From Azolla caroliniana (lineage: Eukaryota > Plantae > Polypodiophyta), in the NCBI GenBank assembly GCA_043228905.1, contig JBHGNT010000016.1, positions 17,670,001-17,734,000 of the forward strand: a DNA stretch of 64,000 nt, read 5' to 3'. The translations under genes and the position numbers were made by a program. This document shows, in pieces, positions 20,900 through 56,236 of this stretch. The notes beneath the pieces are model-generated. The model had not been told where the DNA came from. It saw only the letters and a program-made list of their open reading frames with translations, and ran no database searches. Every line of letters begins with the position of its first letter. The first letter of the stretch is position 1.

Positions 20900-21362
20900 A
20901 ATCACCCTCCTCCAGTTCGAGGAGTCAATCATTTAGGGTTTCCCCTCACCCCACTATTCGAGGAGTGACCTCCCCCCCAATTCGAGGAGTGGGACAAACA
21001 TCCACCCCACCCACACTTTGAGGAGTGGGACACCCACTCCCCCCCTATTTCGATAGAACCCACCAACCACAGTTCACGGAGTTGGGCCCCCACTCCTGTA
21101 TTTCGATAGGTCGAGCGTTAGGGTTTCGAGTAGTCGTTTGGTGCGGCCTATGCGGCCACCATTTTGTAATCGTTCATTTCGTTTTAATACATCTTGTTGT
21201 TCATCTTGTCTCCATCTCCCTCTTGTTCGATCTAGTCTCTTGTTCATTCTTCTTCTTCTTGAGCAAAGCTTCCATTCCCTGTCTGATTCCTTCTCCTCCA
21301 CTCCTTAGTCCAAGACCCCCGTGGTCCCGCCCTTCTCCACGCACGCGCGTAGCAACGCGACA
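20900..21362 (+). mobile_element. 3' portion of a gypsy-family LTR inserted at the start of LINE-B ORF1
   Basis: Ends in AAGACCCCCGTGGTCCCGCCCTTCTCCACGCACGCGCGTAGCAACGCGACA, the same terminal cassette as the LTRs ending at 45576, 51777 and 52620; left end not resolved. Confidence 0.6.
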
Positions 21363-23454: not shown

Positions 23455-23704
23455 GCATATATACATGTATTCTTTCATACATACATACATACATATGAAT
23501 TCATGCATATATACCTACATTCAAACATTACATCTATGAATATGTACATACATACATTACACCAATTTATACATGCATACTGACTAAACATAAATATATG
23601 TACAAATATATATTACCATGTGTAAATGTTTACATACACATACATAAATGCATTGCATATTACATATATAAATACATGCATACATATATACAATATAATC
23701 AGCC

Positions 23705-23780
<76 letters not shown>

Positions 23781-26152
23781 GTGCGTATACTACACATTCT
23801 TACAAACATATTTTATAGAGTACATATTATACACATATATCATTATACACACAATTATATGCAACTACATATATGTATACATACATACCAAACACAAAAA
23901 ATATACATAAATAAATAAATTACGTATTATATATACATACACATACACATACAAATTAATACATAAGATTACATATTATATGTATTACAAATTTCCACAC
24001 GTACAAAGTTACATATATTATATTATATATATGTATATATACATACACGCACATGCACACACACACACACACACACACACATAAATAAATTAGATATTAC
24101 ATATCATATAATCCATACATATTAACAATAAACAAATTTACATACACATACATACATACATTACATATATACATATATTACATATGCACATACATATTCC
24201 ACACATCACCATATATATAGATTATACGAAACCATGCAAACTACATTACTTACATATATACACACACATTAGATATATGTATACTTACACATACATCAGA
24301 TATATACATGCATATTACATACATACATCCATATACGAGCCATACACATACTAAACATGAAAATATCCCGAAAATATACATACATAAATACATTACATAT
24401 ATACACATACATACATTCATACATGTACATACATATCACCATATACACACATATATACACATACATACATTAAATATATGCATACATATTACAAACACAC
24501 ATCCATGCACATTGCCTCATGTACATTGACATATGCATATATGCAGTGCACACACCCACACACATCCATGCACATTGACTCGTGTACATTGACATATGCA
24601 CATATGCACACACATACAGACATTACATATGTAAATACATATTCCATATATATGCATACAATATACATACACACACATTGGATATATGTATACTTTTACA
24701 CATACATTGGACATATGCATATATATTATGTGTATATTGCAAACATACATCCTTATATGAGCCATACACATACTAAACACGAAAATACCCTGAAATTATA
24801 CATGCATAAATACATTACAAATTACATATATACACATACGTACATGTACATGTACATACATATATTCATTTATCCATTGCTACATTTATATACGTACATA
24901 TGCCTACAATGTTACACATATAAATTTTACAAACATAGATCCATACACATATATACATACATTATATACATGCATACACATACATACATTGCATATGTAT
25001 ATTACATACACATACATACATACATTACATATGTACATAGATATCATCACATATGCACACACACACACACATGGTCATACACACTATAAAAGTACATATA
25101 TACATACATTAGATGTATATATATACATAGATATCATGCACATATTACAATCACACATCCATACACATTGAATTGTGTACATTGACATATGTATATATGC
25201 ATACACATATGTACATTCGTACATGGACATATATGTATTCATTCATACATACATACACGTTCCATATATTAGATATATACACATATGTACATTCATACAT
25301 GTACATATATATATTCATACATACACTAAATAGTACATATATACATACATATAGATATTATGCACATATTGCAATCACACATAGATACATACATACCATA
25401 TGCATATATGCATGCACATATGTACATTAGTACATGGACATACATATATTCATTTATACATTGCTACATATACATGCATACACATACATTAGATATTTAC
25501 ATAGATATTATGCACATGTTACAATCACACATCCATACACATTGAATCATGTGCATTGACATATGCATATACACATACATACACACATACGAACATACAT
25601 ACATTACATATGCATACACACATGTACATTCGCTTATGGACATACATATATTCATTCATACATTGCTACACGCATATACGCACATATGGCTACAATGACA
25701 CACGTATAAATTTTACAAACATACATCATTCCCTGAAAATATGCATAGACAAATACATGTTATAAATCCGTACAATGTTACACATATATACATACACATG
25801 CCTTCCATGGTGATACATGTATAAATGTTACAAACTTACATCCATCCATCTGTACATACATACATACATACATACATACATACATACATACATACATACA
25901 TACATACATACATACATAAACGCAAGCACAAAACACATACCTCACATACTCACATGCCATACACACGATACAATATGTACATACATACACACATGCCATA
26001 CATACAATATACACAATACAATACAATATGTACACACACACACACACACACACAAAAGACATCTGCATATACACACCTACACATGCACATATATACAACA
26101 CACACACACACACACACATAACAAATACATACATGTACATATAATACATACA
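23455..26152. repeat. 2.7-kb degenerate (TACA/TA/CA/GT)n low-complexity tract with internal duplications
   Basis: Direct reading; (GT)n at 23708-23783 and (TACA)n at 25853-25917. Confidence 0.9.
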
Positions 26153-38690: not shown

Positions 38691-38769
38691 GCTCTTTATA
38701 GACTGTTGTTGTGCTTTGTCCTTTGTTTTCCCCCTTAAAAATATTCAAATAATAGACATCTAAAAATTT

Positions 38770-40680
38770 ACTAAAAGTATTTCATTTCAATATAATACAA
38801 ACAATCAAGTTATTGTTTAGGTAATACAAAAACTATATTGTATAATATTACATAATGTGATAGATGGTAACTTACATATTTAAAATGTTGAAGCTTGAGC
38901 CTAGCCTTGAAGGATGTCTTCTTCTATTGTTGCTGCAGAATAACTACATATAAAATCAATCATTTTTAAGTGGATTGTGGAACAATAACTTGTTACCCTA
39001 GTAGTACTCACTCACCTTTTTTTTTTCTTTCCAAAAAACACTCACATATTTTCTATGCTAATAAGTTATTACTAACCTTAATTTTTTAATAAAGCATAGA
39101 TGATAGTAATGACTTAACAATAATAGAAACAATGGTAAGTAAAAGTTTTAGTTTTAACTTAAAACCTATGTACTAAAAGTATTTCATTTCAATATAATAT
39201 AAACAGTTAAGTTATTGCTTAGATAATACAAAACCTATATTGTATTATATTACATAATGTGATAGATGGTAACTTACATATTTAAAATGTTAAAGTTGGA
39301 TGGATGTATCATGTATTCTTTTATTGTTGTTGCTGAACAACTATATGTAAAATCAATCATTTTCAAGTGAAACAATAACTTGCTACCCTAATAGAAGTAC
39401 TTACTCACCTATTTTCTATATCAATAAGTTATTACTAAGTTCTAACCTTAGTTTTTTAATAAAGCATAGATGATAGTTATAACTTATTAGTAATAACTTA
39501 ATAATTATAAAAAGGATGGCTAGTAAAAGTTTTAGTTTTAACTTAAAACTTTTGTACTAAAAGTATTTCATTTCAATATAATACAAACAACCAAGTTATT
39601 AAGTAATACAAAAACTATATTGTATAAAATTAAATAATGTGATAGATGGTAACTTACCTATTTAAAATGTTGAAGCTTGAGCCTAGCCTTGAAGGATGTC
39701 TTCTTCTATTGTTGCTGCAGAACAACTACATATAAAATCAATAATTTTTAAGTGGAACAATAGCTTACTACCCTAATAGAAGTACTTACTCACTTATTTT
39801 CTATACTAATAAGTTATTACTAACCTTAATTTCTTCATAAAGCATAGATGATAGTTATTAGTAATAACTTAATAACTATAAAAAGAATGGTAACTGTTAA
39901 AAGTTTTAATTTTAACTTAAAACTTGTGTATTAAAACTATTTCATTTCAATATAATACAAACAGCCAAGTTATTGTTTAAATAATACAAAAACTATATTG
40001 TATAATATTACATAATGTAATAGATGGTAACTTGCCTATTTGAAATGTTGAAGCTTGAGCCTAGCCTTGAAGGATGTCTTCTTCTATTGTTGCTGTAGAA
40101 ATACATATGAAATCAATAATTTTTAAGTGAAACAATAGCTTGCTACCCTAATAGAAGTACTTACTCACTTATTTTCTATACTAATAAGTTATTACTAACC
40201 TTAATTTCTTCATAAAGCATAGATGATAGTTATTAGTAATAACTTAATAACTATAAAAAGGATGGTAACTATTAAAAGTTTTAATTTTAACTTAAAACTT
40301 GTGTATTAAAAGTATTTCATTTCAATATAATACAATCAGGCAAGTTATTGCTTAAGTAATACAAAAACTATATTGTATAATATTACATAATGTAATAGAT
40401 GGTAACTTACCTATTTAAAATGTTGAAGCTTAAGCCTAGCCTTGAAGGGTGTCTTCTTCTATTGTTGCTGCAGAAAAACTACATATGAAATCAATAATTT
40501 TTAAGTGGACTGTGGAAGAATAGCTTGCTACCCTAATAGAAGTACTCACCTTTGTTCTGTACTAATAAGTTATTATTAACCTTAATTTTTTAATAAAGCA
40601 TAGATAATAGTAAAATGTAATAACTTATAACTATAAGTATAAAAAGATGGTTAGTAAAATTTTTAGTTTTAAATTAAAAC
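38770..40680. repeat. AT-rich ~375-395-bp tandem repeat, five copies, inside the hAT leader
   Basis: Recurring AAAAGTATTTCATTTCAATATAATACAA..GATGGTAACTTAC..AAGCTTGAGCCTAGCCTTGAAGG. Confidence 0.9.
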
Positions 40681-41105
40681 TTAAATTAAACCTAGAGTCT
40701 AGACTCTACACTCTAGTATATTAGAATTTAAAGTATTTTTTTTTCGAAAAAAAAAGTATATTAGAGTATTTAATAAATGACTAATGTTATTGTTAAAATT
40801 TTAAATCGATTTGAGAATTTATATCATAAATCATGATTCATCATTACAATTTACAACTTACAATTTATATTTTTTATTTTAAGTGTGTTTTTAAAAAACA
40901 TATAAGATATATATATATATATATATATATATACTAGTAACTAAATACATATATATAAACTTAGAAGTTATAATATTGTCATATTAATATATATTAGACT
41001 AGACTCTTAATTCTAGGACCTAGTATATTACACACTTTATACTAGTAACTTAGTAAGTTGTAACTACATACTACACACATAGTTATAACTTATAACTTAT
41101 TAGTT

Positions 41106-42186: not shown

Positions 42187-44490
42187 TACTTGATCTAATG
42201 TGGTGCATGTGAAGCAAGGAGATGAATGGATAGTGGATCCTACTACAATAATTGACATATGTGTTCATTACTTTAAGGAATTGATTGGCCCACAATTGTT
42301 AAGGAAAAATGAGGTGAGTAGAGCATGTCATGAGTTTTATGATGTGGTTGGATGTATTGTGCATGACCTCATTAGTCATGAACTGGATGAGGATTTCATT
42401 GAGGATGAGGTGGACACAGTTTTAAGGCATCTTCCTAGTGGTAAGAGCCCCGGTTGGGATGGCTTGACAAATGAAGTTTTTAAGAGATATTCGAACATTT
42501 TAAAGGGGCCCTTAACTTTGATGTTTCAACATTCTTGGGATTCAGGTCGTATGCCTCAAGCTTGGAAGGTTGGTCTAATTAAATTAGTTTCAAAGGTGGC
42601 ATCTCCAGAGTCATTTCATCAATGGAGACCTATTTCTTTGATGGGGGGTTGTATAAGATATTTACAAAGGTCTTGGCAAATAGATTACAAAAGTATTTGT
42701 CAAAGTTGATACATCCCGCCCAATATGGTTTTATTGCATGTAGGAATATATTGCATAATGTGTTGAACGTTCAAATGGCCATGGATTATGCTCGAAACAC
42801 TCATCAAGAATTGATTATGGTGCAATTAGATTTGGAGAAAGCTTATGATCATGTTAATTGGTCCGTTGTTTCTTGGTTAATGCATACAATGGGTTTTGGA
42901 CCTCGTATGTCTCGCCTCATATTTTTATTAGGACAAGATGCGATGTCTTGAGTAATGCTTAATGGGGGAGTTACATCAGACATTGCCCTCACAAGATCCG
43001 TTCGTCAAGGATGCCCTATTAATCCATTGTTGTTTGCTATTGTTACTCATCCCTTGTTAGTGACGTTATCCAGGCTTGCAACAAATGGTGATATTGTGGG
43101 TCTACACCTTCCGTTTGGAGGGCAACTAATAGCACAAGCTTTGGCTGATATTCTTTTATGTTTCTACAAGCCACAAGAGAGAATCTTGAGAAGGGGATGC
43201 TTGTATGGAACCAATTTGCATTGGCTTCCGAATTACATATTCATTGGAGGAATTCGAGTCTCATATCATGTACTAAAAGGGATTTGGAATGTTTAGTATG
43301 GCAAGGATCCATGGTGAAGAAAAGCTCTATTTTTCGACACTTGGGCTATCCATTAGGAATGAATGTTACAAATGGTCAATTGATTGAATGGATTTCTAGT
43401 AAGTTGAGGGATAAGTTCATGTATTGGAAGTCACAATCTTGGCCATTTCATGTACTCTTGAAGGTATTATGGGACCCATGATTTTATATTACTTGCCATT
43501 GTTGCCATGGACAAAGAAGGCTTTGCATTCTATTTTGCAACCTCTTCAATATTTGTTGTGGAAGAAGAGGGATAAGATGGGAATCACTTGGATTGCATGG
43601 AATCATCTAGCAACCCCTAAGCGCTTGGGGGGAGCCGGAACATTGAACTTATCTAAGCATATCATGGCTCGTAGATTTTCATTATTACATTACATGTGTT
43701 CAAACTCACAACCATGGATATCTTTCGTTCAATATTTCATTGAGAACAAGGGTTTAACACATGGGAGGACAACAATTAAGGCTTCATGGTGGCAATTACT
43801 GAATGGATGTATTTCACTTAGGATTCCAAGCTCTACATGTGTTCAACACTTGGTTACCTTATGGCAAGAAGCACTCTTGTTATGTGTATGGAAACCATCA
43901 TCTAGTAGAGAGCATTGTAATTTTTTGCAAAAGGAGTTGCTTGTGTCTTCTCGGTTATTATGTTGGCCAGGAAAGGAGGGATTGTGCTCTCAATTTAATT
44001 GTTTGTTTCGTTTGGGGGTCAAAGAGGTGGGAGATATTTTTGAGGCTCCATATCAAAGAATTTTGGAGTTTATTGAAGTGCGGCAATAATTACATATTCC
44101 GCCTAATTATGGGTTTATTTGGCAACATCTACAAAATATCGCATTGATGCAAGGTCCCTTACCTCTAAAAACAGGAGAACAACCATGGATTGATTGGTGT
44201 TTAAAGGGTCAAACGTCATTGTTACAAGTGACTACTAATCTTTTGTATCATTGCTCTGATGACTCTCTTGGATGGTTATCATCTAAGGCTTAAGAAGAAT
44301 GGAGATTACACAAATCTGATAATGGGTGGTGGCAGATCTTACAATGTAGTTGACATTCTAAATTTCTACTTGTAGCAAAGGTCTTCATTTGGAGAGTTTT
44401 GATTGGAGGATTGCCTTTGGGATTAGCTCTAAAGCGTCGTGGATTAACAACGGGTACTTGTTTCTTTTGCACTGTTCAAATGGAAGATAG

Positions 44491-44845
44491 TGTCACAGAC
44501 ATGACAACAATTATGTCAAGATTCGAACTCTTGACTTCTTGTATTATAGTCAAGTGTTATATTGTCACCAACACATCCAAGTACATGGTCGTGTTATGTA
44601 TATCTTCGTAGGATTATCTATTTCAAGTTCTAGGAGTTTTTAGAAAGTTCTAGAGGGTTCTAGAATATTCTCTCGAATATTCTCCAATATATTCTAATGC
44701 ATGTACTTGGACTCACAATATAAATACTTGTAACCTCCTTGGTCCCTTTCTAGGGATTCAACACCAGTCATTGACACATCAATCTAACATTCTCGTTTCG
44801 CCCCATCACGTATGCTCTATCCGAGTCCACAGTTGGTGTGTTCGT
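44491..44845. mobile_element. ~360-bp solo LTR (its last 4 bases displaced to 52625-52628 by the gypsy insertion)
   Basis: TGTCAC...GTGACA termini; 5-bp TSD GATAG at 44486-44490 and 52629-52633. Confidence 0.75.
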
Positions 44846-45580
44846 TGTCGTGAAGAATTTCGGCCAGAGGCGGAAATCGGGAAATGTTGGCTACATCGGC
44901 GGGGTGCAGCAGGTAGTCACCCTTGTACATTTAGTTCGAATAACGAGGGCGCATTTATGGCGCCGAACAGTAGTTAAGTCGGGGTTATCCCACATTGTAA
45001 CGCATCCCTCTCCTTGTTCTATAAAAGGAAGGGAGCGCCCCTTTACGAAGGGGTTGCCCGTTTTGTATTAGTAGGGTATACCGTTAGATGGAGAGAAGTT
45101 CTCTCTTCCTCTCTCTCTCTTGTTTTAGGGTTTCTTCTTCTTCTCCTCCTCTGCTTCTTCTTCGTCACTCTATGAGTCTAGGTTGATACCTGCAGGTGCG
45201 GTATCTGCCCTGTCTGTTGTGCAAGACCCCGCTCGGCGCGACGAGCCCGTGAGCTCCCCGACCGACAGCTTGGCAGTAGACGACTGTTGTATCTTGCTTC
45301 TTGTAAATATACCTATGGAAGATTCTGCGTTTTTGGTGTCTGTGTGGGTGTTTTAGTGTTTCCTTACTTTTGTTTCTGTACATAAGCGTGAGTGGGGTCG
45401 GCACTGTGTGTGTGCGTGTGTCGGCCAAGGGTGCGCGCGTGTTCTTCTCTCCCTCCTTTTGGGTTGTTTTCGGCGTCCCGGAAATGGTGAATCACGACTT
45501 CCTACGCTCCGTCACTCCCTAGTCCAAGACCCCCGTGGTCCCGCCCTTCTACACGCATGCGCGAAACTTCGCGACATCTT

Positions 45581-45598
45581 TGGTGAACCCGACGTGAA
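45581..45598 (+). other. Primer-binding site complementary to cytosolic tRNA-Trp
   Basis: TGGTGAACCCGACGTGAA is the reverse complement of the plant tRNA-Trp 3' end (..TTCACGTCGGGTTCACCA) as I recall it. Confidence 0.75.
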
Positions 45599-48500
45599 AG
45601 GGCGACAAAGGAGTCAAAAGATGAGGGGATCGGAGCTAGCAGAGGCGATGGCAGTAGCCGTCGACCGGCTGGTAAGCGCTCGTGAGGGGACGGGTACCCT
45701 CGACAGAGCCATTGAATCGATTGTCGGCACTATAGGCCGGTTCGGAGGGAAAGACACCACAAGTTATTTGGAGGCTTACCGGGCCGAAATGATCATGAGG
45801 GATATCCCGATGAACATGCGGCTGTCCGGATTCCCTCAGATGGTGACGTCGGGCATCCACGCGGAGGTGCTCGAGGTGCTGGCCAGATGCCAGACTTGGG
45901 AGGAGTTCGAGTTGCGGCTCCTCGAGAAGTACGGGTTTGACGGCTCGCTTTGGCTATCGAGGCGGGACTTCATGGAGTGGGTGGAAAGCCCCGAAAAAGG
46001 GAGGAACACGTCGGTGCTCCTCCAGGAGTTCGAAAAACGGTTCGCACGACTGTCGAGGCTGGACCGGACGGTGCTTGAAACGAGTCGAGTACTACTGTTT
46101 GTCAAGTCGGTGGACGCGCTCGACAGGGAAAAGGTGGGTCCCCTATTGGAAACGGACGAACGGCTCACGGTAGACTGGGCCATGGTAAAACGGGTCTGCA
46201 ACCGTTTCGACAAACGACGCGATTGGAGCGACGGAAGCTTGTCGGGGTCAGGCCGGTCCCGAGGAGGAGGCTCGAGGAGCCGGTATCGGTGCCGGTCGGT
46301 AGGAAGGAAGAGACCCGAATCCAGCCAGAGTCGAGGTCGGCATCGAGGGACGTGGTCAGAGGCCCATCCGGAGGAGCTGACACAGATGGTGCGCGACCTG
46401 CAGATCGCACAGGCTCGGAGAGACAGCGGCAAACAACCTCACGACCGGAGGCCGCCGGCTGGGCAGCGGTGCATGTGGTGTGACGCGATCGGTCACATTA
46501 GGAAGGATTGCGCGGATTTCGCCGACGCGCTCAGGACCAACGGGGTGTACCTCTGGAACGGGCGGGTGCACACGAGCGAGACCCGGAGAGCCCTAGAACT
46601 AAAGACGGGGCACGGCGGAATGAAGAGGTTGATGGAAGAGGCCGTGGCACGGCACGTTGAAGCCGTTAACTACTCAGTGTCAGCGGGAATTCGGGTCAGG
46701 GGTGATGAGACCCGGAAGGTGAAGAACTCCGGATTCTGGCCGCTAGTGCTAGAAGGCCTCTCCGGAGTTCGGCTGAAGAAGGAAGAGGCGGACCGCGGGG
46801 AGCAGAGGGTCCAGGAGGTCACCGGTTGGGACGATCCGGTCGAAGAGAAAACGGGCTTCATAGAAGCTGCTTGCCAGAACTACGAGGTTCTGGTGGAGGA
46901 CAAACGGGCAGGAAAGGCCGGAGGGGTCGGTCCCCCGCAGAGGTATGAGACCCGGTTCCGACCGAAACCAACCGGTGCCGGCAACCCAGGCACGCCGGAC
47001 AGAAAGAAGTAGGCGGGGTTTCGGTTGAGCACCGAAATCGAAAGGACCACAGACCTGCAAAAGGTCCTAGAGGAACATATCCTCGATAGTAAAGTGGAGC
47101 TGTCGTTGCAGGAGGTGCTGGGAATCACCAAGGGTGAGTTCCACAACTCCATCGTAGACTTGGTGAAGCAGAAGAGGCTCTCGACGGAGCCGGAACTGGA
47201 GAAGTTGGTGGAGGTGCGGACCACGCATTTGGAAGACGCGGCCCTAGAAGACGAGTTGGTGGGAAGCCACTACACGAAGCCGCATTGGGCCAGGGCAACT
47301 ACGGAAACCCCTGTACGGATCGGCAACGTTCCGGAACCGGTGGTGGCGTTGGTAGACCATGGATCCGAAATCAACCTGATGTCCATGGATTTCTACAAGA
47401 TGGGTAAATGGCCGATCAACACCAAGCACGGCTGGAAAATATGGGCAGCGACGCACGCCACAAAAGAACTACATGGGGCCTGTCCGAACGTGCAGGTGAA
47501 AATCGGCGATGTCGAGATCGACCAGCACTTCTTCGTGCAGGAGACGTCCTCGCATCCGGTTATACTAGGAGAGCCATACATCACGGCGGCACGGATGGAG
47601 ACCAAGGTGTTGGACAACGGTTTGGCCTATGCAAGAGTCAAGAGCCAGGACGGGCGTCACTCGGTCTAGTTCCTGACAGTGCGACCAAACCATGAGCGTA
47701 ACCGCGAGGCCCTCGGCGGCGAAACTCGAGGGGATTTTTGAAGAGGGCTATCAAGGCGTGGGGCCGCGATAGTCCGGACACCCGAGAAGAACCCCACAAA
47801 TATACAGTACGGAAGAAGACCTGTACCATAGGTAGGAAATTTTGGTTCTCCGACAACGGAGGTTGTACTATGGCCGACGTTAGCGGCCGGGAAAGGAAGC
47901 GAGCAAAGGAGCGGCTCAGGACATGCGGAGTCCTCTCCCCCGACGAAGAGATCAGTGGCGCCATGGAGGCGGTCTCTTTTGACGACACCTTGGGTGAGTT
48001 GCGAAAGGTGGTCGGTGAAGACCTTAGAGAAGACCGGACCGTTCCGGTAGGTTCGATGGGAATGTATGAAGTCATTGCGGACTTCGGGGAGAGGATCAGG
48101 TCGGATTGGACGGCCCGCGTGGATACAAAGTACAAGACTGTGGAGCGGAAGGTGAGGCCAATCGCGGCACCCTTGCTGGAGGGCAGCGAGGAGCGGATAA
48201 AAGGGGTCGCGTCGGACCCGCGTTTACAGAATCCGGCTGGCATAGGGCACCGGTTCACCGACATAACGCTACGGGAGCTCAAGGTTGGTGGGAGTGGCTT
48301 TCTACTGCCGGCGGAGGAGAACAGGTTTTGGAGAATGCTCGGGAGGCATGGGAAAGCCTTCGCGTTCTCGCCAGAGGAGATCGGGTGCGTGGACCCGACG
48401 ATCGTCGAACCGATGGTGATCTTCACGGTACCGCATGTACCGTGGAATCTCAAACCAATTCCGGTGCCGAGAGCTCACATCCCGAAGTTGATGGAGCTTC

Positions 48501-51037
48501 TAAAGCAAAAGGTGGATATGGGCATCCTCGAACTGTCGAGTGCCCCATATTCGAATCGGTGGTACACGGTGCCAAAGAAGAACGGCACGCTGCGCTTCAT
48601 TCAGGACCTGCAACCGGTCAACAGGGTGACCATCCGTAATGCAGGAATCGGACCGACCATAGACGAGTTCGCGGAGGCCTTCGCTGGAAGGTCGATCTAT
48701 TCGGTCGGTGACTTATACTCGGGGTACGACCAGTTCCAGCTAGCCATGGAGAGCAGGGATATCACAACGATGCGAACTTCTCTCGACCTGGTACGAATGT
48801 GTACCCTACCACAAGGCGGGACAAATTCGGTGGCACATATGGTGAACGCAATGAACAAGGTGCTCAGGGACTGCATCCCGGACATCACCATGCCATTCTT
48901 GGACGACATCCCGATAAAGGGGTGTCATGTGGATGACGCGGACGAGACTGTCGGGCCAGACAGATGCCGGAGGTTCGTTGTGAACCACATCAACGACTGC
49001 GAGAAGGTGCTGCAGAAGCTCGAAAACGCACAACTCACCTTCTCCGGAGAAAAATCGGCATTCAGGCAGTCAGAGATCTTGGTGGTCGGACACCTGTGCG
49101 GGCCCTACGGTAGGAAACCGTCTCCGGCAAAGGTGGAGGCCATCTCAACGATGAGGGACGATTGCGGGTCGGTCACGGAGGTCCGCAGATTCTTGGGAGC
49201 ATGCGCATTCTACCACATCTGGATTCCGCACTACGTGCATGTTGCGGAGCCTCTCTACGGGCTATTGAAGAAAGGGCGCGGGTTCGAGTCGAGGACGGAG
49301 CACACGGAGTCGGTCCGGAGACTAAAGGAGGCGCTTACGGTAGCGTTGGCCCTCCGTAAAGCGGTTTACGGCAAGGGCGTCCCCATTTGCGTGATGGTGG
49401 ACACGAGCCCGACCGGGATCGGGTGGGTAATCAGTCAGGAGGACAAGGATGGCGTACGATTTCCGATCCGGTTCGGGGCGAAGGTATTGAGCGAGCGGCA
49501 GTAGGGATACGCCCAAGTTAAGCGCGAGCTTTGGGGTATCGTATCGGCAGTCAAGGCCGACAAGGACTATCTGATCGGGACGGAGGTAATCATCGAGACG
49601 GATTGCCTGCTGATACTCGGCATGGTTTTCGGATGCGCGACGCCGGACCTAGCAATGCTCCGGTGGATAGCGTACATTAAGTCCCTGAACCCGGAGATAC
49701 GGCACATCTCCGGAAAGGATAACGCCATGGCTGACATGCTTTCGAGAGCGAGGTTCAACGAAGAAGGCGGCATGGTTTTGGATGACGAAGAAGTCGGTGA
49801 GGACTTCTTCGGGTCGGCTAATGTGACGACGAAGAAAGGGGACACTCCGGCGCTTAATGAACTTGACGAAAGCAGGTATGACGGGGAGTGGCTCCAAATC
49901 AGGAGGTTCCTACGGACGATGACGCCGGACACAGCATGGACGAGAGAAGAGGCGAGCCGGGTACGGAAGAAGGCGTACCGATTCTTCCTGCGGGAGAGTG
50001 CATATGGAGGTACACAAAGAAGAGAAACGGCATCCCGCTCCGAGTAGTGACAAAGAAAGAAGAACAGGAGGAACTACTAGCGGCATTTCACGAGAGTCCC
50101 TGGGCCGGACACCGCGGAACGTGGGCCACGTTCGAGAAGCTGAAGGAGAAGTACTGGTGGTCGGGGCTGTACCGGGACGTGCATCGGTTCGTAACGACTT
50201 GTGAAAGCTATCAGATGCACTCCGTAGTCCGACATCGGGACGAGCTACACCCGACTTACCCGCCTGCGGTCCATTTCAAGTGGATGGTGGACTTGGTGAC
50301 GATGTCGATGGGAGTAGGATAGATGCGATACATGGTGCTTGCGCAGGAAGACTTAACGAACCAAGTGGAAGGCCGCGCACTGCAGAACAAGACAACCGCG
50401 GCGGTATGCCGGTTCCTGATCAAAGAGGTAGTGTGTCGGTACGGGTGCATCGGCAGGATGGTGGCGGACCGGGGAGAGCTGGATGCGAGGGAGGCTGAGG
50501 AGCTGTTCGACCGGCTAGGGGTCAAACTCTCCCTCACTACGGCGTACAATCCGGAGGCGAACAGAAAGGTAGAACGTGGGCACGGGCTGATCGTAAAGGC
50601 GTTGGTGCGTGCATGCGAAGGGCAGGTCGGGAATTGGCCGCGGCTCCTTCCTTACGCACTATGGGCAGACCGAACTACGCACAGTTCGGTGACATGGTTT
50701 ATGCCGGCAGAGCTGATGTACGGACAGAAGCCGATCAGGCCGGTGAAACAGACGGTTTCTTCATGGGCGGCGGTAGATTGGAAGGACGAAATGAGGCGGG
50801 AGGAGTTGCTGGCGGCGCGGATTCGGCAACTCGAGCGGAGGCCGGAGGACGTGAAACAGGCGAAGGAAAAGCTGCGAGCAGCAAGGGAACGGAACAAGAC
50901 CCGGTTCAACCGGACGCACCGGTTGCGACCAAAGAAGATCGAGGAAGGCGATTGGGTCTTGGTATACGACAGCAGACTCGACAATCAGCACAAGGCAGTG
51001 CGAAAGTTCGCTAGGAGATGGTTCAGGCCCTACACAG

Positions 51038-51777
51038 TGTTGTGAAGAAAACCGGCCATAGGCGGAATCGAAGAAAAGGCGCATGAACCGGCTCTTACAC
51101 GGGTGGACTCGAGGATTGATATATTGTACATAATTCGTAATTAAGGCGACTGGTGTAAATACTAGGTAGTGCACATTTATTAGGGGATTTTGTGCGTATC
51201 TCTGTCGACAGGGACAGGGAATAAAGCAATTTGGCTAAGGAAAAGGGGGGCACCCCCTTTTAGGGAACTATTTAAGGAGAGAGAGGAGGAAGGAACAGGG
51301 ATCGCGCGCTAGGGAGGACGAAGTGCTGTTGCAGATCTGGGTGCCAAGCTCTCTCTTCTCCTCCGGTCGTCGGTCTCTGTGGGTCGGAATCTCGTTGCCT
51401 CTACTTCGTGGACAGCCCGTGCGCTTCCAGCAGAGCCCCCCCCCCCCCCCCCTCTTTTTGTTTTGTTTCTAAGAGTCGAGCGAGTGCTGTCTGTGTGTGT
51501 GAGTAGGATCCCTGAGTTGGGTCCATCGCCGCATAGTCGGTTGTAACTGTCAGAGTCGTATTCTCTTGTATCCTCTTGTTATTGTATCCTCTTGTTATTG
51601 TATTCTCATGTTATTGTATTCTCTTGTCGTTGTAAACTTTTGTTATTGAAATCGAGTATTACGGTCTATATCTCTCCTTCTCGCTTCGCGTATCTACAAG
51701 TCTCTCTCTCTCTCTCCTCGGTTCAAGACCCCCGTGGTCCCACCCCTTTCTACACACACACGCGTAACAACGCGACA
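51038..51777 (+). mobile_element. Nested solo LTR of the same family inside the integrase C-terminus
   Basis: TGTTGTG...CGCGACA termini; TSD ACAG/ACGG; removal restores RPYTVTSANDNGTYHLAELDG; alignable with the 3' LTR. Confidence 0.85.
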
Positions 51778-52519
51778 ACGGTGACGAGCGCGAACGACAA
51801 CGGCACGTACCACCTCGCGGAACTCGACGGGACACGGTTAGCGGTGCCGGTGGCCGGGAAGCGGATCAAAGCGTTCAAGAAGCGGTTCGAAGACGAGCCA
51901 GAGCCTGCGAGCGGGAGCGACAACGACGTTCAGTTTGGGCCTGGCGGAGAATCGGAGAACGACGAGTGAAGCCAGTTTTCTTCGGTATCTACCTATCTCT
52001 GGCGCATGCCGGTGGATGTGCGGTTTGGTGGGGGTGGATGTCGGGAAGAAAACTGGGCATAGGCGGAATCGAAGAAAGGGCGCATAAACCGGCTCTTGCA
52101 CGGATGGGCGCATGAATTGATATTTTGATATTTTGTACATGATTCATAAATGGATCGGCTGATGTAAATACTAAGTAGTACACATTTATTAGGGGATTGT
52201 GCGTATCTTTGTCAGAAGAGATAGGGAATAAAGCGATTTGACTAAGGAGAAAGGGACCCCCCTCTTTGGGAACTATTTAAGGAGAGGAGAGAAGGGAGAG
52301 AAAGGATAACGCGTTAAGGAGGACGAGGTGCTGCAGGACCGAGGGCCGAAGTCTCTCTCCCCCCCTCCGACCGTCATTCTCTGTGGGTGCTAGGAGTTCG
52401 ACGCCTCTGCTTCGTGGGTAGCCCGTGCGCTGCCAGTAGAGGCTTTTCCTTCTGCGTTTCTCTAGGTCCAGTGTTTTCCGTCCATGTGCGTGAGTAGGGT
52501 CCCCGTGTTGGGCCTATCG

Positions 52520-52550
<31 letters not shown>

Positions 52551-53117
52551 TCTCTCGCTCCTCGGTCAAAGACCCCCGTGATTCCGACCCTTCTACACGC
52601 ACACGCGTAACAACGCGACACCGTGACAGATAGTATTCATCGACTTATACAATGTCTGATTGCTTGTTAGATTTGGAGTTACATTTCTCAAATTTGGCAA
52701 GTTAGATCACGGTGTTATTTGACACCTAGAAAGTGGGTGTTTGCACAATTTACACAAGTTGACCCAAAATCAAGGATGGAGATCGTTTTTCTATTTTTGA
52801 GATATTGGGGATTGCATCATAATTGGAATATGCGCAACGCTTTTGTATTCGATGGTAGACATGGAGTGAAAGTATATCTACGAAAGTTGAAGGGAGTACT
52901 AATGTGGCAATTTTCTTTATTGGAGCAAGTGGAAATTCTTTACTCGGTGGAGTGTTTGTCTTGCATATTGGCAATTCAACATGTTCCACTACCCATGTAG
53001 TGTAGTTAGTGGGTGACCATACTTCACTATCGCACCCATTGTAAGTAGTGTTTTTTACACACATTTATTAATATAATTGTTTGTTTTCACAAAAGAGAGA
53101 GAGAGAGAGAGAGAGAG

Positions 53118-54854
53118 AAGCACGACAATTATTACATATTTCGCCTAATTATGGGTTTATTTGGCAACAACTACAAAATATTCCATTGATGCAAGGTCCC
53201 TTACCTCTACAAACAGGAGAACAACCGTGGATTGATTAGTGTTTAAAGGGTCAAACATCATTGTTACAAGTGACTACTAATCTTTTGTATCATTACTCTG
53301 ATGACTCTCTTGGATGGTTATCATCTAAGGCTGAAGAAGAATGGAGAATACACAAATTTGATAATGGGTGGTGGCAGATCTTACAACGTAGTTGGCATTC
53401 TAAATTGCCACGTGTAGCAAAGGTCTTCATTTGGAAAGTTTTGATTGGAGGATTGCCTTTGGGATTAGCTCTAAAGTGTCGTGGACTAGCAATGGGTAGT
53501 TGTTTTTTTGCACTGTTCAAATGGAAGATAGTACTCATCGATTTATACAATGTTCGATTGCTTGTCGGATTAGGAGATACATTTCTCAAATTTGGCAAGT
53601 CTTATCATGGTATTATTTGACACCTAGACAATGGGGTTGACCCAAAATCAAAGATGGATTTCAAAGATCATTTTTCTATTTCTGAGATATTGGGGATTGC
53701 ATCATAATTGGAATATGCGCAACGCTTTTGTATTCGATGGTAGACATGGAGTGAAAGCATATCTACGAAAGTTGAAGAGAGTACTAATGTGGCAATTTTC
53801 TTTATTGGAGCAAGTGGAAATTCTTTCCTCAGTGGAGTGTTCGTCTTGCATATTGGCAATTCAACATGTTCCACTACCCATGTAGTGTAGTTAGTGGGTG
53901 ACCATACTTCATTGTCGCACCCATTGTAAGTAGTGTTTTTTACACACATTTATTAATATAATTGTTTGTTTTCACAAAAGAGAGAGAGAGAGAGAGAGAG
54001 AAGCACGACAATTATTACATATTTCGCCTAATTATGGGTTTATTTGGCAACAACTACAAAATATTCCATTGATGCAAGGTCCCTTACCTCTACAAACAGG
54101 AGAACAACCGTGGATTGATTAGTGTTTAAAGGGTCAAACATCATTGTTACAAGTGACTACTAATCTTTTGTATCATTACTCTGATGACTCTCTTGGATGG
54201 TTATCATCTAAGGCTGAAGAAGAATAGAGAATACACAAATTTGATAATGGGTGGTGGCAGATCTCACAACGTAGTTGGCATTCTAAATTGCCACGTGTAG
54301 CAAAGGTCTTCATTTGGAAAGTTTTGATTGGAGGATTGCCTTTGGGATTAGCTCTAAAGTGTCGTGGACTAGCAATGGGTAGTTGTTTTTTTGCACTGTT
54401 CAAATGGAAGATAGTACTCATCGATTTATACAATGTTCGATTGCTTGTCGGATTAGGAGATACATTTCTCAAATTTGGCAAGTCTTATCATGGTATTATT
54501 TGACACCTAGACAATGGGGTTGACCCAAAATCAAAGATGGATTTCAAAGATCGTTTTTCTATTTCTGAGATATTGGGGATTGCATCATAATTGGAATATG
54601 TGCAACGCTTTTGTATTCGATGGTAGACATGGAGTGAAAGCATATCTACGAAAGTTGAAGAGAGTACTAATGTGGCAATTTTCTTTATTGGAGCAAGTGG
54701 AAATTCTTTCCTCGGTGGAGTGTTCGTCTTGCATATTGGCAATTCAACATGTTCCACTACCCATGTAGTGTAGTTAGTGGGTGACCATACTTCATTGTCG
54801 CACCCATTGTAAGTAGTGTTTTTTACACACATTTATTAATATAATTGTTTGTTT

Positions 54855-54900
<46 letters not shown>
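53118..54900 (+). mobile_element. Two near-identical 883-bp 5'-truncated LINE-A-family 3' ends in tandem, each ending in (GA)n
   Basis: Units start AAGCACGACAATTATTAC at 53118 and 54001; homologous to 44075-44490 plus 52634-53094, without the LTR insertion. Confidence 0.9.
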
Positions 54901-55729: not shown

Positions 55730-56236
55730 CTAGGGGATAGCACCATATATAAAGGGATTGAGCAAACCACTCACGGCATGTATAACAAAGAAATCATCAC
55801 GATAAACATCAGGCATTAGCACCTCCATTTCATCAAGAGCAAGCCTTTGTTGGTGATCAGTTTCTCCTCGTGCACTTGTGACAATGATATTTCTTCCTGG
55901 AAGAAGTGTAGGTAACTTGTAACCAACCGGCAAACATGTTAGGTTTTGATATGGCATACGTTGAGGCACAACATGGTATTGGATTAGCTCCCTTGTCGTA
56001 ATGAGTTTAGCAATGATGGAAGCATCCATGGGAACAAATAAGGTGAACTCAATGCCAATCTTTTCTGGAAACTTAAGTAGTTGTGTAATTAAATATGGTT
56101 CGACATTGTTGAATCCCGCATTATGGAGGGAAAGAATTATATTAGTGGTATTTGGATGATGTAAGTATCTTCCTTCAATGAGAGGAAATATGAGTAAAAC
56201 GACTATGATAAGTAAATTGGATTCCACCATTTCCAT
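55730..56236 (-). CDS. Secreted single-FAS1 (fasciclin) domain protein, intronless
   Basis: Signal-peptide-like N-terminus; H1 FTLFVPMD, YHVVPQR, LPTLLPG, H2 FVIHAVSGLL. Confidence 0.85.
   Translation of the reverse strand: MEMVESNLLIIVVLLIFPLIEGRYLHHPNTTNIILSLHNAGFNNVEPYLITQLLKFPEKIGIEFTLFVPMDASIIAKLITTRELIQYHVVPQRMPYQNLTCLPVGYKLPTLLPGRNIIVTSARGETDHQQRLALDEMEVLMPDVYRDDFFVIHAVSGLLNPFIYGAIP

Follow-up and report, generated by a model that had tools for sequence, protein, structure and literature searches.

A Ty3/gypsy insertion in Azolla caroliniana that carries the long terminal repeats of two different families

A Ty3/gypsy retrotransposon with two unlike long terminal repeats (LTRs) was analyzed in a 64,000-nucleotide stretch of the Azolla caroliniana genome (contig JBHGNT010000016.1, positions 17,670,001 to 17,734,000; hereafter the window). 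This element, at window positions 44846-52620, is a hybrid of two families. By comparison with related copies in the 523-Mb genome, which holds large families of both LTR types, its inside and 3' LTR are assigned to an autonomous family (B) and its 5' LTR to a family that encodes only gag (A); the family letters A, B, C, and B2 were coined in this analysis. The hybrid was probably inserted as such, after an intermolecular second (plus) strand transfer between co-packaged elements. Such hybrids are real and recurrent; the mechanism is likely but not proven.

Results

The 5' LTR (731 bp) and 3' LTR (582 bp) have the extents given in an original prediction made from the window sequence alone, and the resemblance between the A and B LTRs is confined to their ends, as that prediction also held: about 30 nt at the start, the first 12 nt being near-identical, and 55-62 nt at the end. 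The trimmed cores of the two LTRs gave a local alignment score of 32, as compared with a mean of 20 and a maximum of 35 for 200 shuffles. A collinear alignment was rejected, as nothing aligned past the ends. The trimmed core of the LTR nested in the integrase region (51038-51777) scored 322 against that of the 3' LTR, with 77% identity over about 400 nt, in agreement with the predicted kinship of these two. The element has a primer binding site (PBS) after the 5' LTR, a polypurine tract before the 3' LTR, TG..CA ends, a target site duplication (TSD), and Pfam matches in the Ty3/gypsy order of reverse transcriptase (RT), RNase H, and integrase (IN); gag and protease (PR) had no firm Pfam match and were assigned by position and motif. 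The Ty3/gypsy feature that it lacks is a pair of homologous LTRs, the core score being at shuffle level.

The parent families were characterized from samples of related copies, comprising 20 gag and 19 integrase-end copies (each from the nearest 39), one B/B pair that was added to the integrase-end set, and 20 of 40 A-LTR matches. The gag of the window element went mostly with B: among the sampled gag copies, the 5' LTR was of type B in 14 and of the A-related type C in 2, and the other 4 had a B-type end, the rest of the LTR having been displaced by other insertions. The integrase end was followed by a B LTR in 20/20 copies. The A and C LTRs flank insides of 3.3-4.6 kb that carry a gag-like open reading frame (ORF; gag match, 33-43%), PBS, tract, and TSD. 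No match to PR, RT, or IN was found in the complete A/A or C/C insides (8/8, all devoid of pol) or in 2 partial A1 insides. The partners, predicted to be co-packaged subfamilies, are instead an autonomous family and gag-only non-autonomous families. TR-GAG elements are non-autonomous by definition. With LTRs, PBS, tract, and gag and without pol, the A and C families are structurally like the TR-GAG elements named in PMC13570524. The PBS, tract, LTR ends, and NCGN target are common to the A/C and B families, and these shared signals, together with the hybrids, suggest that the A family is mobilized in trans by its autonomous partner B. Terminal branch lengths were similar for the A LTR, gag, pol, and B LTR (0.02-0.06, in trees that are star-like and poorly resolved), which would fit parents that were active together.

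The element lies within a solo LTR of an unrelated family, which in turn lies in a remnant of a long interspersed nuclear element (LINE). The predicted continuity of both hosts was borne out. A single 4-mer was present at the insertion place in 12/16 extended copies of the host LTR family (7 CCGT, 3 CTGT, and 2 CCAT), the host LTR is bounded by a perfect GATAG duplication, and the empty LINE site recurs at ~53530 and ~54415. Thus, the flanks of the window element are continuous and represent one insertion site, a conclusion that follows from this continuity and not from the TSD match. The predicted TSD with one mismatch is real (TCGT/CCGT, where the left copy may have changed from CCGT by CpG-type decay) but is weak evidence alone, because these families target NCGN and random pairs of flanks often match. 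The flanks read xCGx in 85% of 78 left and 78% of 74 right cases, and random left/right pairs match exactly in 10% and within one base in 43%. Since 43% of random pairs match as well as those of the window element, the TSD was rejected as proof of a single insertion. Ordinary elements of these families (n = 19) had 12 perfect TSDs and 7 with one mismatch.

In the 5' LTR of the window element, A-type sequence can be recognized from nt 13 until 8 nt short of the LTR end, and the bases past the PBS are B-type; the switch is confined to ~32 nt around the PBS. The genome was searched with exact junction patterns, the resulting counts being lower bounds. B end, PBS, and B gag were joined at 262 junctions, and 603 had an A end. 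The patterns that join an A end to B gag gave 2 strict and 19 loose matches, 3 of which are real; all 16 newly examined loose matches were point mutants or other subfamilies. For the window's B family, the family switched at the PBS junction in 3/265 cases. At the tract junction, no switch was found in either direction (0/126 B and 0/453 A; 0/579 in total), and among these tract-side junctions there was neither an autonomous lineage bounded by two A LTRs nor a B inside ending in an A/C LTR.

Two further complete hybrids with perfect TSDs were found on other contigs of the genome. At C21:10074026-10092330, an A1 5' LTR is joined to a B inside and a B 3' LTR (TSD CCGG/CCGG); at C9:2401263-2414095, a C-type 5' LTR stands on another autonomous subfamily (TSD TCGT/TCGT). 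Both sit in internal regions of their hosts. The flanks of the C21 hybrid are contiguous in another copy of its host, and those of the C9 hybrid together make one RT frame. Their LTR core scores were 33 and 24 (shuffle maxima, 27 and 28), as compared with >1000 for ordinary pairs. The C21 hybrid has the same end purity as the window element, being A from nt 13 and B until 8 nt before the end; in the C9 hybrid, the LTR starts diverge at nt 8. The 3' LTRs of the window and C21 elements are 80% alike and fall in different subclades; the C21 event is therefore independent of that in the window, and a common origin as copies of one hybrid was rejected. These data show three independent single-site hybrids, including the window element, and hybrids recur at ~1%. 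A related insertion with three LTRs, L014 (C14:12230482-12238726), consists of a C LTR, B inside, B LTR, partial PBS, C remnant, and C LTR. Its outer C LTRs are 94% alike, 10 nt of PBS follow the B LTR, and its TSD has two mismatches.

Other junction matches were of several kinds. The reciprocal pattern gave 6 matches, comprising two real junctions (L119 and L117), with far ends that are unresolved or have no TSD, and four that were other families or were not resolved. The pattern for the second autonomous subfamily gave 8: L117, L136, and six (at five loci) in which the last 75 nt of a C-type LTR stand on B2 LTRs, at both ends wherever both ends were observed. The C4 matches (L131/L132) were rejected as hybrids, being nested, and the far end of L012 was not found in the 20 kb examined. 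A small autonomous lineage (L135, L137, L139, L140, and L141/L146) has LTRs whose last ~75 nt match the end of the C2 non-autonomous LTR at 92-96% identity; by sequence, this C2-like end was possibly captured from a dependent family and then propagated. The window itself holds the 3' part of a C2-type LTR (21117-21362; 94% to the C2 reference).

The features of the element and its insertion site are listed in Table 1. In the surroundings, a broken LINE ORF2 with an RVT_1 match (42194-44089) precedes the host LTR, and a tandem LINE fragment follows it (52628-54886; unit, ~883 bp; 90-96% alike), the LINE unit also being present to the left of the host LTR. Neighboring inserts are presumably of copia and RTE type. 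The window further contains a 168-amino-acid ORF with a fasciclin domain (55733-56236, minus strand), a tandem array of ~390-bp units (38766-40682), and a long degenerate dinucleotide-rich tract (23456-26150). Three B 5' LTRs (L003:8900, L005:8880, and L019:8900) are interrupted at their microsatellite, each by a 3' tail from the same LINE-like element, which we take to be an RTE; this suggests microsatellite targeting by that element. Matches to the tRNA-Trp 3' end cluster with a spacing of ~0.9-1.2 kb at C8:17796786-17823371, C16:4989495-5105657, and C5:10105608-10112201, and these clusters are likely tandem tRNA gene arrays.

Table 1. The hybrid element and its insertion site in the window
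Feature	Position	Strand	Basis or remark
GATAG, left copy of the host solo LTR 5-bp TSD, in LINE remnant	44486-44490	+	Sequence; empty site in LINE repeats
Host solo LTR, unrelated family, left part	44491-44845	+	Genome family; ends of other copies
Left TSD copy TCGT	44842-44845	+	Host family has CCGT here
Whole element	44846-52620	+	Ty3/gypsy, two unlike LTRs
5' LTR, type A (subfamily A1; LTR of gag-only non-autonomous family)	44846-45576 (731 bp)	+	93-94% to other A1 LTRs
A-to-B switch interval	45570-45602	+	Final A-type base 8 nt before LTR end; B-type spacing and gag after PBS
PBS, complementary to tRNA-Trp(CCA)	45581-45598	+	Complement equals end of genomic tRNA-Trp genes
B-type gag and protease region	45621-47669	+	ORFs; stop at 47010-47012 breaks frame; nearest copies have B LTRs
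B-type pol (RT, RNase H, integrase)	47702-51037	+	Pfam RVT_1, RT_RNaseH, Integrase_H2C2, rve; stops and frameshifts
Nested solo LTR, type B of another subclade, within integrase	51038-51777 (740 bp)	+	TSD ACAG/ACGG
Integrase C-terminal remainder	51778-51969	+	ORF; without chromodomain match
Polypurine tract	52027-52038	+	Identical in 126 B and 453 A/C 3' junctions
3' LTR, type B	52039-52620 (582 bp)	+	B-type up to ~7-8 nt from its end
Right TSD copy CCGT and final bases of host LTR	52621-52628	+	Other host-family copies
GATAG, right copy of host LTR TSD	52629-52633	+	Sequence; LINE empty site

Discussion

Under the intermolecular second strand transfer that we favor, A and B RNAs would be packaged in one particle and both primed, and, as the LTR bodies have no homology, each would complete the first transfer within its own RNA. 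The A plus-strand strong-stop DNA, comprising the whole LTR and the PBS, would pair with the PBS copy that terminates the B minus strand, and extension would yield a linear DNA of A LTR, B inside, and B LTR. The B integrase would accept this hybrid because the outer ends are conserved, and a 4-bp NCGN duplication would be made. A complete A LTR, U3 included, is found in the DNA form alone and hence could not come from a simple jump of the minus strand to A RNA. In a review (PMC6894440), plus-strand strong-stop DNA is one whole LTR plus PBS that is transferred by PBS homology alone, with the second transfer drawn within one minus strand, and for HIV-1 a U5/gag breakpoint is the signature of an intermolecular second transfer (PMC5651808). 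The window element has a breakpoint at the PBS, a whole donor LTR at its 5' end, and an inside and 3' LTR from one parent. Its single TSD and pure ends fit formation before integration, even as locus L132 shows the stepwise genomic route considered below in part. The transfer at the tRNA-Trp PBS put forward in the original prediction thus gains from the B-type inside, the ~32-nt switch, the pure ends, and the independent cases; the mechanism itself is still one that we infer.

Several observations weigh against this reading. The asymmetry between PBS and tract junctions (5/~870 versus 0/579; p ~0.08) is not significant alone, and the PBS interval is the best stretch of identity, so that any homologous exchange would favor it. 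At L132 (C4), an A-type LTR stands inside the end of a B 5' LTR and is followed directly by PBS and B gag; here a genomic route leads to the same junction, and a single deletion between the LTR starts would give the window structure. At L136/L143, a 72-nt C-type end is present on one LTR only, and therefore short exchanges in the end block happen. At L117/L123/L129 (C1:8765600-8782000), facing reciprocal junctions (C LTR/B2 gag and B2 LTR/C gag) lie inside a B2 LTR, possibly owing to an inversion at the PBS block. L119/L127, the candidate for the reciprocal hybrid, in which a B 5' LTR and an A inside are followed 20 kb off by an A 3' LTR, has no TSD (CCGT/TCAG). Particles and cDNA that hold both A and B are postulated from sequence. 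Of the public sequence runs, 16 were listed (best share, 0.32) and four were compared, in which the longest listed piece was 96 nt, too short to probe the assembly.

A stepwise genomic origin is unlikely but comes next in probability. Here, A would insert in the B 5' LTR, a deletion would follow between the PBS blocks, and a second deletion between the LTR starts would remove the B remnant. The CG-rich LTR ends do take nested insertions (L044, L051, L119, and L132), and L132 (TSD CCGG/CCGG) has the state expected after the first two steps. However, this route must end with a crossover in the first 12 nt (7 nt in C9), and must do so three times, when the longer homology of the end block should favor another outcome, as in L136. 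Among the junctions that the same searches yielded, clean ones from an A/C-type LTR to autonomous gag without an upstream B remnant number 6 (window, C21, C9, L012, L014, and L117) versus 1 with a remnant (L132).

Slightly less likely again is a crossover of finished extrachromosomal A and B cDNAs at the PBS, or derivation of the A LTR from a read-through transcript, in either case with no strong-stop transfer. A single TSD and pure ends would likewise be expected, L014 is explained equally well by two jumps and by a one-LTR circle that crosses over at the PBS, and rare recombination between extrachromosomal DNAs has been raised (PMC5668417). However, the tract block (~40 nt plus the LTR start) should also serve for such crossovers, and none of the tract junctions is switched; within the ~100-nt end block, they would be expected anywhere and not just in the last 32 nt.

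Conversion of one whole LTR, or of the inside and 3' LTR, after insertion was the other explanation originally proposed, with the conserved ends as anchors. It gains from the one-sided end replacement at L136/L143, which occurred within an intact TSD, but is improbable given an outer anchor of 7-12 nt and the better donors at hand, namely hundreds of fully homologous B LTRs, the element's own included. Misassembly, or independent A and B insertions that hit one and the same base in two host copies and were later joined by one PBS crossover, is very improbable: the ~30-nt junction word occurs in ~5800 genome places, the NCGN preference raises the chance of a shared site, and no read among the short public pieces spans the window element, but a single misjoin would disrupt the flanks, and these are continuous in all three hybrids, the nearest copies are at most 95% alike, and the C21 and C9 hybrids lie in host internal regions without a twin LTR.

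Intermolecular second strand transfer, the mechanism preferred here, has been inferred for HIV-1 (Cappy et al. 2017, PMC5651808), where the switch is likewise at the PBS, the breakpoint is at U5/gag, and both RNAs must be primed. There, the evidence came from next-generation recombinants between homologous LTRs, and the authors saw no U5/gag breakpoint in 27 proviruses. In contrast, a first-generation product stands in the Azolla caroliniana genome, and its LTRs are non-homologous. Soybean elements with swapped LTRs reportedly carry the same LTR at both ends. No such swap was found here, as the 3' LTR is B and 0/126 B insides have an A/C 3' LTR. The likeness to LTR swapping in soybean and rice is that the exchange is between an autonomous and a dependent family, as in the rice Dasheng/RIRE2 chimeras (PMC5473765). 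Template-switch insertions in Triticeae (Sabot and Schulman 2007, PMC1950507) also are hybrids of two co-packaged elements with one TSD, and L014 is built of three LTRs in a similar way. In the Triticeae insertions, the outer LTRs are near-identical and the switch is placed at R, whereas the LTRs here are unrelated. Onsen recombinants likewise arise from co-packaged plant retrotransposon RNAs but within one family, and the product has two identical LTRs (Sanchez et al. 2017, PMC5668417; Drost and Sanchez 2019, PMC6894440). Co-packaged RNAs are already known to recombine, and three-LTR complexes and helper/dependent chimeras have been described; the sources either report identical outer LTRs or leave the structure unstated. 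Full-text literature searches brought up no earlier account of plant insertions that occupy a single site and have unrelated LTRs joined at the PBS; Du 2010, Lauermann and Boeke 1997, and Jiang 2002 may bear on the point.

In its features, the autonomous family resembles Phygy (Neumann et al. 2019, PMC6317226), with an NCGN target, a 4-bp TSD, a compact build, and no chromodomain match. Coding sequence covers 45621-51969 of an inside that spans 45577-52038, and the C-terminal piece has no Pfam match. Primer tRNA-Trp is listed for non-chromoviruses generally, and gag-only partners and hybrids are not described in the portion of that paper available (PMC6317226).

If the hybrids are what they appear to be, they break the rule that both LTRs are identical at insertion, which LTR finders and LTR dating assume. 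They would be annotated as a solo LTR and a truncated element and, by implication, hybrids between closer subfamilies would be dated too old. They would also be physical evidence that non-autonomous RNA shares the particle of its helper and that both get copied, which is usually only assumed. Because the LTRs of the parents have no body homology, the rate and position of intermolecular second transfers would be countable in the Azolla caroliniana genome. On balance, we lean slightly toward the broader view that ~1% of the autonomous insertions of this lineage integrated with unrelated LTRs through second transfer between co-packaged autonomous and gag-only RNAs. Such insertions would record heterodimer packaging and double priming as genomic fossils that LTR finders do not see, and would offer a route by which the promoters and LTR ends of parasites may reach their helpers.

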